Assembly: GCF_003334315.1 (NCBI RefSeq)
Contig: NZ_QOWR01000022.1
From: Escherichia coli
Lineage (GTDB): Bacteria > Pseudomonadota > Gammaproteobacteria > Enterobacterales > Enterobacteriaceae
DNA: 64,000 nt
Direction: 5' to 3' (one strand)
Below the pieces are notes generated by a model. It saw nothing but the letters and a program-made list of their open reading frames with translations. It did no database searches and was not told the DNA's origin. Both the position numbers and the translations under genes were made by a program. Below are positions 1-59,750 of this stretch, piece after piece (the stretch's first letter is position 1; the number at the start of each line of letters is the position of its first letter).

Positions 1-149
1 GGTTGAGAAGCGGTGTAAGTGAACTGCAGTTGCCATGTTTTACGGCAGTGAGAGCAGAGATAGCGCTGATGTCCGGCGGTGCTTTTGCCGTTACGCACCA
101 CCCCGTCAGTAGCTGAACAGGAGGGACAGCTGATAGAAACAGAAGCCAC
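1..149 (-). CDS. insA: IS1 InsA, N-terminal fragment (GTG start at 149..147, runs off the window)
   Basis: Minus-strand translation from the GTG gives [49 protein letters not shown], matching InsA from memory. Confidence 0.7.
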
Positions 150-204
150 TGGAGCACCTCAAAAACACCATCATACACTAAATCAGTAAGTTGGCAGCAT
201 CACC
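1..204 (-). mobile_element. IS1 insertion sequence, partial (left terminal inverted repeat plus start of insA); the element continues beyond the window edge
   Basis: Reverse complement of 1..204 reads GGTGATGCTGCCAACTTACTGATTTAGTGTATGATGGTGTTTTTGAGGTGCTCCAGTGGCTTCTGTTTCTATCAGCTGTCC..., which I recognise as the IS1 left end. The psuK reading frame breaks exactly at 204/205. Confidence 0.85.
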
Positions 205-566
205 GTAATAGCGTTGCTAATATTCATGTCATTTATAGCAACCAGCATTTCACCGGTATTATCGAGTAATGATAAATAGCTCGACGTATTTTCTCCCGGC
301 ACAATCAGGCATTTATCGACATAAACGCCAGATTGATTGGTTTGCGTTAGCAGCGATTGGCCATAAAAATCACTGCCTACGGCGCTCAGTAGCCAGGCTT
401 TATTACCCAGCAACGCCAGGTTTTGTGCAATATTGCGCCCTACCCCACCAGGCGTAAATTTTATTTTACCTGGATTTGAATCCGCATAATTTAATGATTC
501 ATGTGAATATCCGGCGACATCAATATTCGCCGAGCCTATAATTACGACATAATCCTTTTCGCGCAT
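205..566 (-). pseudogene. psuK: Pseudouridine kinase psuK (yeiC), 5' part only (about 120 codons), truncated by the IS1 insertion
   Basis: ORF 183..566 (-) begins MREKDYVVIIGSANIDVAGYS... (PfkB-family sugar kinase N-terminus; full protein is about 313 aa). After ...NAIT the frame runs into IS1 and stops after 6 foreign codons. Confidence 0.8.
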
Positions 567-804
567 AGCACGTCCTCTGGTAAAAAATTACCAACCCTGT
601 CAATCCACAAGAATATAGATACTGCAAAGACAGTTTAAACATGTGTTCATATTTAAACATGTGCTCATAGTATGCATGTTTTACGTAAAGTAAATTGCCG
701 CCAGAGAGGCAAAGCGGGCAGATTTGAGCAGGCTCACAAAATGCGATTAAATGCCAGAATTACAAAAGCGAGGAATTTGTGACGGGATGCACAGAACATG
801 AACA

Positions 805-832
805 CTAAAAAAGGGCAGAAAAGAATCTGCCC
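805..832 (-). terminator. Rho-independent terminator downstream of fruA (end of fruBKA operon)
   Basis: GC-rich hairpin gggcagattcttttctgccc followed by a T-run on the minus strand. Confidence 0.6.
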
Positions 833-989
833 TTGAGGAAATAACCTTAGTGTTTGATGAACGTTTCAGGTTTCTACTGAAAGATAAAACCATTTAAATT
901 CATAAAATTACATTCACAAACCGGTCATTCTCTTTGCGCTCATCCAATGATACAGGGCAGTAAAATTCTGCCCTGTAACACACCTTTTA

Positions 990-2681
990 TTACGCGGCTT
1001 TCGCTACTGCGTCCACTTCCGGACGTTTCAGGAAGGCATAGGCCAAACCCGCCACCAGCGTACCGGCAATAATTGCTACCAGGTAACCCAGTACCGGCGT
1101 AATAGCGCCAGGGATCAGCAGAACAAACAGACCACCGTGCGGTGCCATCAGTTTCGCACCAATCGCCATTGAGATTGCGCCAGTCAGCGCCCCACCCACG
1201 ATACAGCACGGCAGCACACGCATCGGATCACGAGCAGCAAACGGAATTGCACCTTCCGAAATAAAGCACAGTCCCAGTACCAGAGCAGCTTTGCCACCTT
1301 CCTGCTGCGCTTTGTCGAATTTGCGACGCGCCACCATTGTTGCCAGACCCATTGCCAGCGGTGGCACCATACCTGCCGCCATAATCGCCGCCATCGGGCC
1401 ATAGGTTTGAGTACTCAGCAGACCCACACCGAATGCGTACGCTGCTTTATTTACCGGACCGCCCATGTCAGTACACATCATGCCACCGAGGATCGCCCCC
1501 AGCAGAACCGCATTCGCAGTCCCCATGGTCTGCAGCCAGTGAGTCAACCCTTCGAGAATGCCAGCAACCGGTTTACCGATCAGGTAGATCATCGCCAGAC
1601 CGACCACCAGACTGGAAATTAGCGGAATGATCAGGATCGGTTTCAGCGCCTCCATACTCTGTGGCAGTTTCAGTTGCGTACTGATTAACTTCGCAATGTA
1701 ACCAGCCAGGAAGCCCGCAATAATACCGCCAATGAAGCCAGAACCGGTGCTGACCGCCAGCATACCACCAATCAGACCCGGCGTGAGACCCGGTCGATCG
1801 GCAATGGAGAAGGCAATGTAACCTGCCAGTACCGGCACCATCAGCGCAAAGGCTGAACCACCACCAATCTGCATCAGCGCCGCTGCCAACGTACCCGGCT
1901 CTTTAAACGCTTCGATACCAAAAGCAAAAGAAAGCGCGATACACAGACCACCTGCAACGACCATCGGCAGCATGTAAGAGACACCCGTCAGCAAGTGACG
2001 GTATGCGCCTGCACTCTCTTTCTTACCTTCAGAGGTCGCCGTTTGAGCTTTGCCCGCCGGTTCATACGGCGTTGCTTCAGCAACCGCTTTATCCAGTTCC
2101 TGCGCGGTTTTCTTCAGCGCCAGACCGGTAGAGGTACGATACATCGGTTTACCAGCAAATTTCGCCAGATCCACTTCGATATCTGCCGCCACAATCACCA
2201 GATCCGCTGCGGCTACTTCTTCGGGAGTGATTGCATTACCCGCACCAACAGAACCACGGGTTTCAACTTTCACCCACCAGCCACGTTTTTTCGCTTCGGT
2301 TTCAATGGCTTCAGCCGCCATAAAGGTGTGTGCTACGCCAGTCGGGCAAGCAGTCACCGCAACTACGCGTTTCGGACCGCTGGCGGCAACCGGTGCTGTC
2401 GCAGCGACCGGCGCAGTGTAAGGTTTCGCATGGCCTTTGGCTTCACTCAGGAACAGCTCAGGGTGCGCAACTGCCCGGGAAATATCGCCCAGCCAGACAT
2501 TTTTACCGTTCAGCGCGCTGTCATTCGGGATGGAATCACCGAGAACAATCGCCATTTCTGCGTCGTTCGGATTGTCGATGATTTCCAGTTTTGCTTTTCG
2601 CGCCGCCGCGCCCAGCAGGGTCTTCGCCATATAGGCGCGTGCCTGACCGAGATTAGCGTCAATAATCAGCAGCGTTTTCAT
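990..2681 (-). CDS. fruA: PTS fructose-specific EIIB'BC component
   Basis: 563-aa ORF with a large polytopic membrane domain and IIB-type region; position downstream of fruK and fruB. Confidence 0.95.
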   Translation of the reverse strand: MKTLLIIDANLGQARAYMAKTLLGAAARKAKLEIIDNPNDAEMAIVLGDSIPNDSALNGKNVWLGDISRAVAHPELFLSEAKGHAKPYTAPVAATAPVAASGPKRVVAVTACPTGVAHTFMAAEAIETEAKKRGWWVKVETRGSVGAGNAITPEEVAAADLVIVAADIEVDLAKFAGKPMYRTSTGLALKKTAQELDKAVAEATPYEPAGKAQTATSEGKKESAGAYRHLLTGVSYMLPMVVAGGLCIALSFAFGIEAFKEPGTLAAALMQIGGGSAFALMVPVLAGYIAFSIADRPGLTPGLIGGMLAVSTGSGFIGGIIAGFLAGYIAKLISTQLKLPQSMEALKPILIIPLISSLVVGLAMIYLIGKPVAGILEGLTHWLQTMGTANAVLLGAILGGMMCTDMGGPVNKAAYAFGVGLLSTQTYGPMAAIMAAGMVPPLAMGLATMVARRKFDKAQQEGGKAALVLGLCFISEGAIPFAARDPMRVLPCCIVGGALTGAISMAIGAKLMAPHGGLFVLLIPGAITPVLGYLVAIIAGTLVAGLAYAFLKRPEVDAVAKAA

Positions 2682-2697
2682 TATGCCTCTCCTGCTG

Positions 2698-3636
2698 TCA
2701 GTTAAAAGGTTGTAAGTCGACGCGCGCCATCATTGCGGCCAACTGCGGACGATCGGTAATACCCACATTGCTTTGACTTACCGCCAGGGCTGCAACAGCA
2801 GTCGCCAGACGCAGTGTGTGTTCACTGGATTCACGCATTAGCAAGCCATAAATCAGGCCACCAACCATAGAATCCCCTGCGCCAACGGTGCTTACGACAT
2901 CGACTGACGGTGGTTTGGCGATCCATTCGCCGGAGGCATTAACCCAAAGCGCGCCTTCGGCACCCAGTGAAATAACGACATGCGCAATACCTTGTTCACG
3001 CAGCGCATGCGCAGCTTCAATCACATCTTTCATTTCAGGCAGTTTACGGCCTGCCCAGATTTCCAGCTCGCGGCGGTTAGGTTTCACCAGCCACGGTGCC
3101 GCTTTCAAACCTGCTACTAACGCTTCACGGCTACTATCAAAGATAATGCAAGGACACTGACTACGCAGGCGAGTCATCCAGTCGGTGAACGCTTCCGGGC
3201 TGACGCCTGACGGTAAGCTTCCGCTGACACAGACCATATCGAACTGACCGAGCCAGCTCAGAGAATCAGTCACAAAGCGTTCCCAGTCGGCGGGGGTGAC
3301 TTCAAAACCCGAGAAGTTGAAGTCGGTCACTTCGCCGTCTTTTTCCGTCAGCTTAACGTTAATTCGGGTGCGCCCCTGTACAACCTGGAAACGGTTGGCA
3401 ATGCCCAGCTCGCTGAACAGTTGCTGAAAACCATCCTGATTGTCTTTACCCAGGAAGCCGCCAACGGTGACATCAATTCCCAGGTCTTTTAATACTTTGG
3501 CCACGTTGATGCCTTTACCCGCCGCATGCAGACCGGTGGTTTTCACCAGGTTCACTTCGCCGCGTTCAATTTCCGGGCAGAAACCAACAAGGTCATAAGC
3601 CGGATTAAGGGTGATAGTAGCAACACGTCTGCTCAT
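2698..3636 (-). CDS. fruK: 1-phosphofructokinase
   Basis: 312-aa ORF, PfkB family ([15 protein letters not shown]...); start overlaps the fruB stop (TAATG). Confidence 0.95.
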   Translation of the reverse strand: MSRRVATITLNPAYDLVGFCPEIERGEVNLVKTTGLHAAGKGINVAKVLKDLGIDVTVGGFLGKDNQDGFQQLFSELGIANRFQVVQGRTRINVKLTEKDGEVTDFNFSGFEVTPADWERFVTDSLSWLGQFDMVCVSGSLPSGVSPEAFTDWMTRLRSQCPCIIFDSSREALVAGLKAAPWLVKPNRRELEIWAGRKLPEMKDVIEAAHALREQGIAHVVISLGAEGALWVNASGEWIAKPPSVDVVSTVGAGDSMVGGLIYGLLMRESSEHTLRLATAVAALAVSQSNVGITDRPQLAAMMARVDLQPFN

Positions 3637-15449: not shown

Positions 15450-16544
15450 ATGGGCGCTTACCTGATTCGCCGTCTGTTGCTGGTGATCCCAACATTATGG
15501 GCGATTATCACCATCAACTTTTTCATCGTGCAAATTGCGCCTGGCGGTCCGGTCGACCAGGCCATCGCCGCCATTGAGTTTGGTAATGCCGGAGTATTAC
15601 CCGGCGCAGGCGGTGAAGGTGTTCGTGCCAGCCATGCGCAAACGGGTGTCGGCAATATCAGCGACAGTAATTACCGTGGCGGACGCGGATTAGATCCAGA
15701 AGTGATCGCTGAGATCACTCATCGCTACGGTTTTGATAAGCCGATCCACGAACGTTACTTCAAAATGCTCTGGGACTACATCCGCTTTGATTTTGGCGAT
15801 AGCCTGTTTCGCAGCGCCTCGGTGCTGACGCTGATTAAAGACAGTCTGCCGGTTTCCATCACCCTCGGATTGTGGAGCACGCTGATTATCTATCTGGTGT
15901 CGATTCCGTTAGGCATTCGCAAAGCTGTTTATAATGGGAGCCGCTTTGACGTCTGGAGTAGCGCATTTATCATCATCGGCTACGCCATTCCGGCCTTTTT
16001 GTTTGCCATCCTGCTGATTGTCTTCTTCGCGGGCGGCAGCTATTTCGACCTGTTCCCTCTACGCGGCCTGGTTTCCGCTAACTTTGATTCGCTGCCGTGG
16101 TATCAGAAAATCACCGATTATCTGTGGCATATCACGCTGCCGGTGCTGGCGACAGTGATTGGTGGCTTTGCGGCGCTGACCATGCTGACAAAAAACTCAT
16201 TCCTTGATGAAGTGCGCAAGCAATACGTGGTGACCGCGCGTGCGAAAGGGGTAAGTGAAAAAAATATTCTCTGGAAACATGTGTTCCGCAACGCCATGCT
16301 GCTGGTGATTGCCGGTTTTCCGGCGACGTTTATCAGCATGTTTTTTACCGGCTCGCTGCTGATTGAGGTGATGTTTTCACTCAATGGTCTGGGCTTACTG
16401 GGCTACGAAGCGACCGTCTCGCGCGATTATCCTGTAATGTTTGGTACCTTGTATATTTTCACCCTGATTGGCCTGCTGCTGAATATTGTCAGTGATATCA
16501 GCTATACGCTGGTTGATCCGCGTATTGATTTTGAGGGACGTTAA
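15450..16544 (+). CDS. yejB: ABC transporter permease YejB
   Basis: 364-aa membrane ORF immediately following yejA. Confidence 0.9.
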
Positions 16545-44470: not shown

Positions 44471-44948
44471 GTGAAGTGCGGCACCCCGTAGGTCAGACAA
44501 GGCGGTCACGCCGCATCCGACATCCAACGCCCGAGTCGGTTGCCTGATGCGACGCTGGCGCGTCTTATCAGGCCTACACCGCTGTGAAGTGCTCCACCCC
44601 GTAGGTCGGATAAGGCGGTTACGCCGCATCCGACATCTAACGCCCAAGCCGGTTGCCTGATGCGACGCTGGCGCGTCTTATCAGGCCTACACCGCTGTGA
44701 AGTGCTCCACCCCGTAGGTCGGATAAGGCGGTTACGCCGCATCCGACATCTAACGCCCAAGCCGGTTGCCTGATGCGACGCTGGCGCGTCTTATCAGGCC
44801 TACACCGCTGTGAAGTGCTCCACCCCGTAGATTGGATAAGGCGGTTACGCCGCATCCGACATCTAACGCCCGAGCCGGTTGCCTGATAAGACGCTGGCGC
44901 GTCTTATCAGCATACGCCACATCCCCGGCATACCATGCCGGATGTGGC
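44471..44948. repeat. Tandem BIME/REP array: about 4 copies of a 113-bp unit, each carrying REP palindromes
   Basis: Units begin at about 44471, 44584, 44697 and 44810; each contains ccgcatccgacatc and gcctgatgcgacgctggcgcgtcttatcaggcctacaccgct. Confidence 0.85.
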
Positions 44949-56704: not shown

Positions 56705-56900
<196 letters not shown>

Positions 56901-59750
56901 CTACGAATCCCGCGATTTCCTGACCCTCTCGGCATATAACGTCAGCGTCTGTTTTATCACATCCAGCATTACCGGCTTCGACAGGCAGCTGTCCATACCG
57001 GACTCCAGACACCGCTGCTTCTCTTCAGCCAACGCATTAGCAGTTACTCCGATTACCGGCAACGTCAGTCCCAACTGACGAATGCGTTGCGTCAAGCGGT
57101 AACCATCCATATTTGGCATGTTGACGTCGCTAAGCACGATATCAATATGATTCTTGCTAAGTACATTAAGCGCATCGACGCCATCATTCGCGGTTTTACA
57201 TTGATAGCCCAACGATCCCAACTGATCTGCCAGCAAACGCCGGTTAATCGGATGATCATCCACGACAAGAATCATCATATCGTCATTATCGCTGACCGCT
57301 TTGTCCGTTGACGGCAGAGCGTTAGCAGGATCGTCGCTCTCCATCTCGATCAAATAAATACGCGCCAACAATGCCGGTAGCTCATGCGGAGCAGCCACAC
57401 TGTGTACCCACTCCCCTGGCGCTTTCTCCAGCGGAATACCAATATGGCGACGACAGAAGGTCACTACCGCTCTGCCCTGCCATTTTTTACTCACTACCTC
57501 GTCAGTGATCAACACATCTTCGGGAGTCGGTTCCTGCCCTTCGTATGTTGTAACGACGATGCCGCTGCGCTGCAAACTGGTTTCCAGGAACTGACAGAGC
57601 GACGCATTGCGGACCGCCAGCCAGCAGCGTTTACCACTCAACCCTTCCACGCCTTTTTTCTGCGGGTACTGAGCGCCGTACAACGGAATACGCACGGTAA
57701 ACTGGCTGCCCATTCCCGGTTCTGAATCTACCGAGATATCGCCGTCCATCATGCTGATCAGTTTTTCACAAATCGCCAGACCCAGACCGGTCCCCTGGAA
57801 ATTACGCTGTACGCCCGTTCCGACCTGGAAGAAGGGATCAAACAAGCGCACCACTTCTTTCGCCGGTATCCCCACGCCGGTATCGCGAACACGGATAGAG
57901 AGATAATCGCCATCCGCGCGAACATGCAAAACTATACAGCCGGTATCGGTGAATTTTATGGCGTTACTCAACAGGTTGGAGATGACCTGCTGTAAACGCA
58001 TCGGGTCGCCATTTAAGGCCACTGGCACATCCGGTTCAATAAAGCAGTACAAGCCTAACTGCTTGCGTACCACCAGCGGTAAATAGTTGGCGGTGATGTG
58101 GTTCATCACTTCACGCGGTGAAAACTCACGCGGTTCGATCTTCAACTGTTCCGATTCAATCTTCGAGAAATCGAGAATATCGCTGATAATTTTCAACAAC
58201 AGGCTGGAAGAGTTGTTCATTGCCGTCACCAGCCGATCGACGCCTTTCGGTAACTCTTTGGTTTGCAACAGATCCAGGTTACCGATAATGCCATACAGCG
58301 GCGTTCGCAGCTCATGACTGACGGTGGCAAGGAACATCGATTTTGACTGGCTCGCCTGTTCCGCTGCTTGTGCCATCTCCTGCAACGACTCTTCCATCTT
58401 CACGCGCGAAGAAACATCCACCAGCACACAAATGGCCACGTTTTCATTACGATAGCGCGAATGGACGAAGCTGATTTGCAGATTGGTATTGTTGCTGGTC
58501 AGGACATCAACAAAATTGACCTGCTGCCCACAGATAATTTGCGTCAGTCGTTGGCGGTCCTCATGCGTAAGCATATTGAGATAGGTATGCGCCAGTTCGT
58601 TACTTAAAATATTGACGCCATCAGCGGTACGCAAAATGCAGATACCCACTGGCGCGGAGGCGACAATCTTGCGATTGAACTGCTCATGTTCTTCCAGTCG
58701 CAGGGCGTCGCTTTCCGCCGGAATGAAAATACGTCGCTCGTACATCCGTGCGAGAGTAAACAATGCAGCTCCGGCAAGCACATTCAGCAAAATTGCGTTA
58801 AGGATCAACATGCGAATGCGTTCCAGCACCTTATCAACCGGCACCGAATACACGATGCTTAGCGATGAGGGTGGCAGATTTTTCTTCAGCACCAGCTCCC
58901 GGAACCCTTCCGTATAGCCAAACCAGGAGCGTTCCTGCATCCAGCGAGGATCGCCCTTAATTTTACTTTCTGGTCCGGTAAGCGAAATCAGGGTATGACC
59001 ATTTTCATCAAGAATGGTAACCCCCATCGGCAACGTACCCGGTAAGAAAAAGTTTTCCATCCGGATGGTCTGCTCGACACCCAAAAGCGCCTGCAACCGG
59101 TTCGCCAGATAAACTGGCGTCAACGCGTAAAAATACCCGACGCCAGGGCGCGGACCTTCGCTGATCCAGTAGAGGTTACTGCCGCTATCATCTTGTGGTG
59201 CATTTCGATATTTATTGATGCGTTCATGCAAAGCTTTCAACGCGGTATCGCGTTCCACTGGCATATCACGCAGACCGAAATTGGCCATGCAGAGGTTATC
59301 ACTGCCGATTAAAAATACCCGGTTGAGATCGTAAGCCGCAGAAAAATTATCGCGCCAGTAGCGCATAAACCACGCCAATGACTCCAGAGAACCTCGCCAG
59401 GTGTTACTCATCGCGGAACAATCGGAGTCGGCAAACAGCGGTTCAAACGCAGGCACATCCGCCTGCGTTTCTCGTCCACGCGGGGAAAGCACACCGTTCT
59501 CTGCCGATAAGCGATTTTCGGCGATGTACTTCAGCTCTTTCATCACATCAGAGGTGCGTTGAATAAAGCGCTGAGCCTGATCGGAACTCAGATTAAATTC
59601 CTGACGAATTTCCGATTCTCGCTGATGTAACGCATTAACGATGTAAAAAACGGATGAAAAAGCAATCAACAGCCAGAGCACTAACGCCAATGCTCTGAAC
59701 ATGTAGCGCGAGGCTTTCAGGGTTGTACGAAAAGAAGCAAGGTATTTCAA
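56901..59750 (-). CDS. rcsC: Rcs hybrid sensor histidine kinase RcsC
   Basis: 949-aa ORF with TM/periplasmic domain, HisKA (H-box SHELRTP), HATPase and C-terminal receiver domain. Confidence 0.95.
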   Translation of the reverse strand: MKYLASFRTTLKASRYMFRALALVLWLLIAFSSVFYIVNALHQRESEIRQEFNLSSDQAQRFIQRTSDVMKELKYIAENRLSAENGVLSPRGRETQADVPAFEPLFADSDCSAMSNTWRGSLESLAWFMRYWRDNFSAAYDLNRVFLIGSDNLCMANFGLRDMPVERDTALKALHERINKYRNAPQDDSGSNLYWISEGPRPGVGYFYALTPVYLANRLQALLGVEQTIRMENFFLPGTLPMGVTILDENGHTLISLTGPESKIKGDPRWMQERSWFGYTEGFRELVLKKNLPPSSLSIVYSVPVDKVLERIRMLILNAILLNVLAGAALFTLARMYERRIFIPAESDALRLEEHEQFNRKIVASAPVGICILRTADGVNILSNELAHTYLNMLTHEDRQRLTQIICGQQVNFVDVLTSNNTNLQISFVHSRYRNENVAICVLVDVSSRVKMEESLQEMAQAAEQASQSKSMFLATVSHELRTPLYGIIGNLDLLQTKELPKGVDRLVTAMNNSSSLLLKIISDILDFSKIESEQLKIEPREFSPREVMNHITANYLPLVVRKQLGLYCFIEPDVPVALNGDPMRLQQVISNLLSNAIKFTDTGCIVLHVRADGDYLSIRVRDTGVGIPAKEVVRLFDPFFQVGTGVQRNFQGTGLGLAICEKLISMMDGDISVDSEPGMGSQFTVRIPLYGAQYPQKKGVEGLSGKRCWLAVRNASLCQFLETSLQRSGIVVTTYEGQEPTPEDVLITDEVVSKKWQGRAVVTFCRRHIGIPLEKAPGEWVHSVAAPHELPALLARIYLIEMESDDPANALPSTDKAVSDNDDMMILVVDDHPINRRLLADQLGSLGYQCKTANDGVDALNVLSKNHIDIVLSDVNMPNMDGYRLTQRIRQLGLTLPVIGVTANALAEEKQRCLESGMDSCLSKPVMLDVIKQTLTLYAERVRKSRDS

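Follow-up and report, generated by a model that had tools for sequence, protein, structure and literature searches.

Tandem 18-bp repeat upstream of psuK in Escherichia coli: a probable dual operator of the pseudouridine operon with YeiI as candidate repressor

The psuK gene lies on the minus strand of the window (the whole 64,000-nt stretch of E. coli DNA that was analysed), with its ATG at 566, and is separated from fruA (stop codon at 990) by a 423-nt spacer. Within this spacer TTTAAACATGTGTTCATA (634-651) directly abuts TTTAAACATGTGCTCATA (652-669), the two units being identical in 17 of 18 bases. The preliminary description had reported an adjacent 18-bp direct repeat located 70–100 bp from the psuK start and accompanied by a third, CATG-containing motif. 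The repeat was recovered by TRF (period 18, 2.0 copies, score 65) and spans 68-103 nt 5' of the ATG, and the third motif is present at 670-683. By our own estimate the per-position probability of an adjacent 17/18 match is around 1e-9, and the repeat exceeds chance. Across the 64 kb three tandem arrays scored at least 50 in TRF, the other two having 113-114-bp units; these arrays (44471-44910 and 56708-56919) are REP/BIME-like by sequence. The psuK repeat does not behave as a dispersed element (REP/BIME, MITE or IS end): it occurs at a median of one and a maximum of two places per genome, and it has no Rfam match. A scan of 1-3000 against Rfam at E ≤ 1 returned nothing relevant. The features of the region are listed in Table 1.

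Table 1. Features of the psuK upstream region and related sites in other psu operons (window coordinates unless stated otherwise)
Feature	Location	Strand	Evidence or remarks
End of IS1 copy inserted in psuK	1..204		IS1-family transposase annotation in matching genomes; terminal sequence
psuK remnant, first ~120 codons, IS1-interrupted	205..566	-	sequence, matching genomes
5'-UTR hairpin TGGTAAttttTTACCA, 6 bp	578..593	-	directly upstream of psuK Shine-Dalgarno; in minimum-free-energy fold
18-bp tandem repeat, two units 17/18 identical	634..669		sequence, TRF
Putative operator site 2, TGAACAcaTGTTTA	636..649, centre 642.5	-	18 bp downstream of site 1; cross-genus alignment
Putative operator site 1, TGAGCAcaTGTTTA	654..667, centre 660.5	-	half-site columns (nearly) invariant, 12 promoters
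Predicted -10 TACTAT, 4/6	667..672	-	TAyyAT in 12/12 promoters; 16 nt from -35
Spacer block AAAACATGC, contains one AAACA half-site	674..682	-	columns A79-A84, G86, C87 (nearly) invariant
Predicted -35 TTTACT	689..694	-	base 692 is adaptive SNP site; published SNP, alignment A2
CRP-like site TTTTGTGAgcctgcTCAAATCT	720..741, centre 730.5	-	conserved in 12/12 promoters
CRP-like block TTGTGA-N6-TCAwATCT	741-720	psuK strand	alignment A2
-35 block TTTACT	694-689	psuK strand	alignment A2
Spacer block AAAACAyGC	682-674	psuK strand	alignment A2
-10 block TAyyAT	672-667	psuK strand	alignment A2
Two palindromes RAACAnnTGTTY	667-654 and 649-636	psuK strand	alignment A2
Pasteurella sites AAACAAAAGTTG, AAACAGGTGTTG	-33, -15 from start codon		spacing 18 bp
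Shewanella sites AAACAAAAGTTT, GCAAACATATGTTTGC	-58, -39 from start codon		spacing 19 bp
Aliivibrio sites AAACAATAGTTA, GAACATATGTTT	-47, -28 from start codon		spacing 19 bp
Burkholderiaceae genome CAACACTTGTTT	-14 from start codon		weak partner ~19 bp upstream
Enterobacter sites CAAACAGATGTTTG, AAACATAAGCTC			spacing 18 bp
Salmonella isolate AAACATATGTTT and degraded partner			spacing 18 bp
Yersinia, Serratia, Xenorhabdus single sites, e.g. CCAAACACTTGTTTGG	~ -250 to -285 from called start

The IS1 copy extends beyond the start of the window, and psuK is a pseudogene here with its promoter and operator region intact; the psuK/IS1 junction is common to few complete E. coli genomes only. On the fruA side of the spacer two terminator-like hairpins are found on the minus strand, one just past fruA (975-953) and one with a T-run (834-807). 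The approximately 120 nt between them is conserved in E. coli and carries a 48-aa hypothetical ORF in some RefSeq records; Rfam gave no match for 807-975. The hairpin preceding the psuK Shine-Dalgarno sequence has T-A as its fourth pair in E. coli; this pair is T.G in E. albertii and C-G in Citrobacter, Buttiauxella and Enterobacter, and the stem has wobble pairs at other positions. These pairs were read by eye, MAFFT having shifted one arm and RNAalifold having returned no structure. The pair-preserving changes suggest a conserved RNA stem.

On the psuK strand the two units read TATGAGCACATGTTTAAA TATGAACACATGTTTAAA, and each contains a 14-bp near-palindrome, TGARCAnnTGTTTA, the centres being 18 bp apart. 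A PsuK scan with one genome per species yielded 11 loci from Escherichia (three non-coli lineages and E. albertii), Citrobacter, Buttiauxella and a Raoultella MAG. The window and the 11 loci were combined in an alignment (A2) of 12 promoters from four genera, which is gap-free from column 19 to approximately column 133, from the CRP-like site through site 2. Five conserved blocks were seen: the CRP-like site, the -35, the spacer block, the -10 and the two palindromes. The half-site columns show no or almost no variation in the 12 promoters; variation is seen in the central dinucleotide and in the six bases separating the 12-mers. Dyad symmetry is present in each site, 93% of the intra-site half-site cells being complementary in the 12 sequences. 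The palindrome has the form GAAC-N4-GTTC and no CTGT-N8-ACAG occurs in 630-700, so that the sites differ from a LexA SOS box; they resemble the Gram-positive Cheo box rather than the box of E. coli LexA. The spacer block at 674-682 coincides with the third motif of the preliminary description; it is strikingly conserved across genera and may be a third, partial binding site.

The 18-bp register of the two sites is kept ungapped in Escherichia, Citrobacter, Buttiauxella, Raoultella and Enterobacter while the flanks diverge, and the sites are also conserved in a further enterobacterial contig and, with one partner degraded, in one Salmonella isolate. A near-perfect direct repeat is common to E. 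coli, two divergent Escherichia lineages and E. whittamii. Beyond E. coli and its closest relatives the units are alike in 10-13 of 18 positions and still stand 18 bp apart. Since these diverged units keep the 18-bp register, the near-perfect repeat is attributed to homogenisation of an older two-operator array, and it is the palindrome RAACAnnTGTTY within each unit, rather than the direct repeat itself, that is predicted to be functional. The 18-bp spacing places the two sites on different faces of the helix, and cooperative binding is not obviously favoured. Conservation in orthologous psuK promoters, which the preliminary description had named as a check, was thus found in at least five genera with diverging flanks, and its idea of a tandem operator or promoter element for the psu operon gained support from the conserved register, from the adjoining -35 and -10 and from the occurrence of the palindrome in seven distant genera. 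We think it very probable, from this pattern of conservation, that 634-669 is a conserved protein-binding dual operator.

Within E. coli, 4,213 of 5,426 complete genomes carry the 63-nt stretch 634-696, each at a single place, and 3,719 of the 4,213 have it with 100% identity. At least 80% of this two-unit stretch was matched in 4,207 of the 4,213 genomes. Seven sampled variants represented three alleles: T650C in the 4-nt gap between the sites (four variants), C675T in the -35/-10 spacer (two variants) and G645A in a half-site of site 2 (one variant). In the laboratory mutant UC4316 (NZ_CM168047.1), which is recorded as a mutant of UC4224, one 18-bp unit is deleted exactly and a single site is left; the allele resembles a natural operator deletion. 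Because this was the only single-copy case found and the stretch is otherwise near-uniform, the array does not qualify as a variable-number repeat. Approximately 4,200 of the 5,426 genomes contain the psuK 5' end and its upstream region. In the remaining approximately 1,200 genomes neither the psuK 5' end nor the promoter is matched, indicating that the psu locus is variably present in E. coli. Strain ER1709 has a psuK-fruB junction, which suggests a deletion.

The position of the psuK promoter was deduced with the help of a published mutation. An A->C substitution at NC_000913.2:2257444, in the psuK/fruA spacer, was selected repeatedly during evolution in the mouse gut (PMC7518454, PMC6731689, PMC10340439) and is also described in PMC9509342. 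Three populations kept in long-term stationary phase acquired an A->C change designated psuKp (PMC7858067), which is presumably identical with the gut SNP. The offset between NC_000913.2 and NC_000913.3 is exactly 1,978, as calibrated on four srlR amino-acid changes, and an lrhA insertion was consistent with this value. The gut SNP thus corresponds to NC_000913.3:2259422 and to window position 692, 126 nt upstream of the ATG, where it turns TTTACT into TTGACT on the psuK strand. The same allele is already present in the K-12 strains ER1821R, ER2683, S17-1 and ST18 and in one pigeon isolate.

The hexamer hit by the SNP, which is invariant in A2 except for TTTACA in E. albertii, is followed 16 nt downstream by the conserved TACTAT, and from this pair we infer a transcription start near 660. 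The wild-type hexamers match the consensus in 8 of 12 positions, which fits a weak, activator-dependent promoter. The putative CRP site (TGTGA-N6-TCAAA, a conserved consensus match only) is located at approximately -70.5 from the predicted start and is absent from the CRP table of PMC12871828; the psuK promoter is probably CRP-assisted. In class I CRP-dependent promoters, sites of the TGTGA-N6-TCACA type have their centres near -61.5, -71.5 or -82.5. Relative to the predicted start, site 1 occupies approximately -7 to +7, overlapping the last base of the -10, and site 2 occupies approximately +12 to +25. The spacer between the predicted -35 and -10 holds the CATG-containing motif. Alternatively, the SNP at 692 could generate a promoter of its own instead of strengthening the native one.

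The motif RAACAnnTGTTY also precedes the psu operons of seven more distant genera, often as a pair 18-19 bp apart (Table 1). When at most one mismatch was allowed, 31 matches were found in 5.8 kb of psu-upstream windows versus 24 in the remaining 158 kb of the loci. In the upstream regions of Yersinia, Serratia and Xenorhabdus no second site was found, and the single site lies far (approximately 250-285 nt) from the called start, which counts against the model proposed below; single matches with two mismatches are expected by chance, by our own estimate, approximately 0.1-0.3 times per 300 nt. In Aliivibrio and in the Burkholderiaceae genome the first site begins 2 nt past the only predicted -10. 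The second site of Pasteurella and the site of the Burkholderiaceae genome lie so near the start codon (14-15 nt) that there is no room for a promoter downstream of them, and sites abutting the start codon cannot be upstream activator sites. A perfect match at window position 16275 lies inside a 364-aa ORF and was taken as chance. In the K-12 yei cluster the motif is absent from the other intergenic regions, including the rihB-yeiL spacer and the region upstream of nfo-yeiI; the latter gives no sign of autoregulation of yeiI in E. coli.

No regulator assignment for the psu operon was found in the searchable literature. A gene coding for a winged helix fused to a PfkB domain (wHTH-PfkB) was found in, or adjoining, every psu locus examined. 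In E. coli this protein is YeiI (b2160), whose winged helix (HTH_24, E 2e-10) spans residues 1-48 and whose PfkB domain spans 58-348. Among solved structures E. coli PsuK is the closest to it (E 1e-66), and the winged helix is covered by no solved chain. YeiI has been described as uncharacterised (PMC9061257, PMC12506659) or listed merely as a hypothetical transcription factor (PMC6055005). Homologues having both domains are widespread. In Yersinia, Serratia, Xenorhabdus, Pasteurella, Shewanella, Aliivibrio and the Burkholderiaceae genome the wHTH-PfkB orthologue of YeiI is the first gene of the operon, directly 5' of psuG and usually of a nucleoside transporter gene. In Citrobacter werkmanii psuK-psuG-psuT is followed by a convergent 362-aa gene, the yeiI orthologue, and then by nfo; Buttiauxella has the same ORF pattern. 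The order is also that of C. werkmanii in Enterobacter and in a further enterobacterial metagenome contig, where yeiI comes directly after psuT, and in K-12 only nupX-rihB-yeiL stands between psuT and yeiI. In the Salmonella enterica isolate GCA_010633625.1 yeiI and psuT-psuG-psuK are together beside a relBE-type toxin-antitoxin pair and not near nfo or fruA, as though the four moved as a unit.

When E. coli YeiI was compared with six distant orthologues, the winged helix was 57-70% identical and the PfkB domain 38-48%; the conservation of the winged helix matches that of the DNA half-site. The two groups of orthologues differ in their kinase motifs. The operon-first proteins have the canonical KPN..E and GAGD in every case, and members of the enterobacterial YeiI clade, which coexist with a separate PsuK, have KPT..E and GADD wherever the motifs were found. 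With TxxE and GADD in place of NXXE and GAGD, enterobacterial YeiI departs from the PfkB kinase motifs, the catalytic Asp being kept; PsuK has NxxE and GAGD. YeiI also retains the PsuK residues S30, N143 and K170, which have been tied to pseudouridine affinity and to the substrate-induced conformational change (PMC9061257).

From these observations YeiI appears to be the most likely binder of the palindromes, and we infer that it would repress psuKGT with pseudouridine as the inducer. According to the model, a weak sigma-70 promoter (TTTACT-16-TACTAT), probably CRP-assisted, would drive psuK-psuG-psuT, and its start and early transcribed region would be covered by the two imperfect palindromes RAACA-nn-TGTTY. 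A YeiI dimer bound to each palindrome would block RNA polymerase, and pseudouridine, or its 5'-phosphate, would release YeiI by occupying the PfkB domain. We assign a probability of roughly 60% to this model as a whole, which was derived by sequence comparison.

Among the alternatives, the one that survives best accepts a genuine operator and ascribes it to another factor, which could be the CRP/FNR-family protein YeiL, a regulator of nucleoside genes (DeoR or CytR, for instance) or a factor encoded elsewhere. We consider it unlikely, though to be taken seriously. YeiL is encoded between rihB and psuT in K-12, and of its regulon a single target is given in RegulonDB (PMC9308461). However, the psu neighbourhoods of Citrobacter, Buttiauxella and Enterobacter lack yeiL, as do those of the seven distant genera in which the motif is present, and the motif does not occur in the rihB-yeiL spacer, as described above. 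For DeoR, the junction between the two sites, TGTTTAAATATGAACA, agrees in 11 of 16 positions with the DeoR operator, TGTTAGAATTCTAACA. This match is limited to the outer four bases on each side, and the stand-alone sites of Yersinia, Xenorhabdus, Shewanella and Enterobacter have the arrangement AACA-nn-TGTT and not TGTT-N8-AACA. Repeats of the TGCAA type, the CytR half-site, are absent from the region.

A second alternative would make the repeat a set of activator sites. In E. coli a downstream promoter-like pair, TTTAAA (639-634) and TATATT (617-612) separated by 16 nt, would put the repeat at the -35 and upstream of it, so that a bound protein could recruit RNA polymerase. This pair was flagged with 9/12 matches by the consensus scan, and the neighbouring regulator YeiL is annotated as an activator in RefSeq. 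Nevertheless, in that scan promoter-like sites were no commoner than in shuffled sequence, and the downstream hexamers are not conserved beyond E. coli and its closest relatives, whereas TTTACT-16-TACTAT is; the downstream match was rejected as the main psuK promoter on this ground. The adaptive SNP improves the upstream -35 and not the downstream hexamer, and the sites of Pasteurella and of the Burkholderiaceae genome abut the start codon. Taken together, activation through the repeat is improbable.

We give a similarly low, marginally smaller chance to an RNA element, in which transcription starting near 660 would place both units in the leader, where they would pair as a 9-12 bp hairpin affecting mRNA stability or translation. 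Such an inter-site hairpin was predicted in all eight species tested (-5 to -15 kcal/mol, well below shuffles), but complementarity is inherent in any two copies of one palindrome. The helix showed no covariation in 12 sequences: 88.2% of the cells were paired versus 91.8% in shuffles, one pair had changed on both sides versus 3.3 in shuffles, and 500 of 500 shuffles reached the observed score. Moreover, the helix predicted for E. coli has a register different from that of the other species, single sites without a partner exist, and it is the sequence and not pairing alone that is conserved from Burkholderiaceae to E. coli, which is the signature of a protein-DNA site.

Finally, a neutral, recent 18-bp tandem duplication without function, which the near-identity of the units in E. 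coli and the precise loss of one unit in UC4316, as by slipped-strand events, would fit, is highly improbable, as the cross-genus alignment shows a two-site layout older than the genus Escherichia and the stretch is near-uniform among the E. coli genomes carrying it.

The proposed repressor has parallels in known systems. NagC and Mlc, two ROK proteins of E. coli, consist of an N-terminal winged helix and a sugar-kinase fold that senses a metabolite and has no kinase activity, and their operators are palindromic and belong to catabolic promoters at which CRP also acts. YeiI, a putative DNA-binding and ligand-responsive protein, likewise joins a winged helix to a sugar-kinase fold. In contrast to the ROK/ASKHA fold of NagC and Mlc, the fold of YeiI is PfkB/ribokinase-like, and the operators of NagC and Mlc are longer (~23 bp) than the psu palindromes and unrelated to them in sequence. 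The psuK system would thus represent a catabolic repressor built on a kinase fold, PfkB instead of ROK.

The wHTH-PfkB proteins can also be compared with BirA and NadR, which join a winged helix or HTH to an enzyme of the pathway under their control. The operon-first proteins of Yersinia, Pasteurella and Shewanella keep NXXE and GAGD and are the sole kinase of their operon, and would therefore combine enzyme and regulator in a single protein. E. coli and its enterobacterial relatives appear to divide these functions between PsuK and YeiI with its altered kinase motifs; we know of no such split of kinase and regulator for BirA or NadR.

With the CRP-dependent promoters controlled by CytR and DeoR (deo, udp, cdd, nupG) the psuK promoter would share its role in nucleoside catabolism, the weakness of the core promoter, a CRP-like site upstream of it and control by a specific repressor. 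It differs from them in operator sequence and layout, having no CytR octamers and, as mentioned, a DeoR-like match in the outer bases only. Adjacent palindromes over the core promoter or the early transcribed region, acting by occlusion, are found in the two 18-bp ARG boxes and in the two MarR sites of marO, an arrangement that is predicted for the psuK sites as well. The ARG boxes are 18-bp palindromes with a TGAAT/ATTCA core and stand 21 bp apart, whereas the psuK sites are 12-14 bp palindromes with an AACA/TGTT core and stand 18 bp apart.

In the wider interpretation, YeiI would be the pseudouridine-responsive repressor of psuKGT and the founding member of a class of regulators with PfkB fold, the 18-bp repeat being its dual operator. 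The ancestral form would be a bifunctional kinase-autorepressor at the head of the operon, as in Yersinia, Pasteurella, Shewanella and Aliivibrio, and in E. coli and its enterobacterial relatives these roles would have been separated through a duplication, leaving PsuK as a kinase without HTH and YeiI as a protein with HTH and degenerate kinase motifs that serves as a sensor only. We regard the chances of this evolutionary scheme as about even.

Few modified nucleosides are as abundant as pseudouridine, and no regulator is assigned to the bacterial operon for its catabolism in the searchable literature. An operator together with a named candidate would give a function to the uncharacterised yeiI. 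If the model is true, the recurrence of the psuK/fruA SNP in the mouse gut and in long-term stationary phase would have a molecular explanation, the mutation improving the -35 of a promoter that is weak and repressed, and the system would offer a candidate pseudouridine-responsive switch for strains engineered to make pseudouridine.
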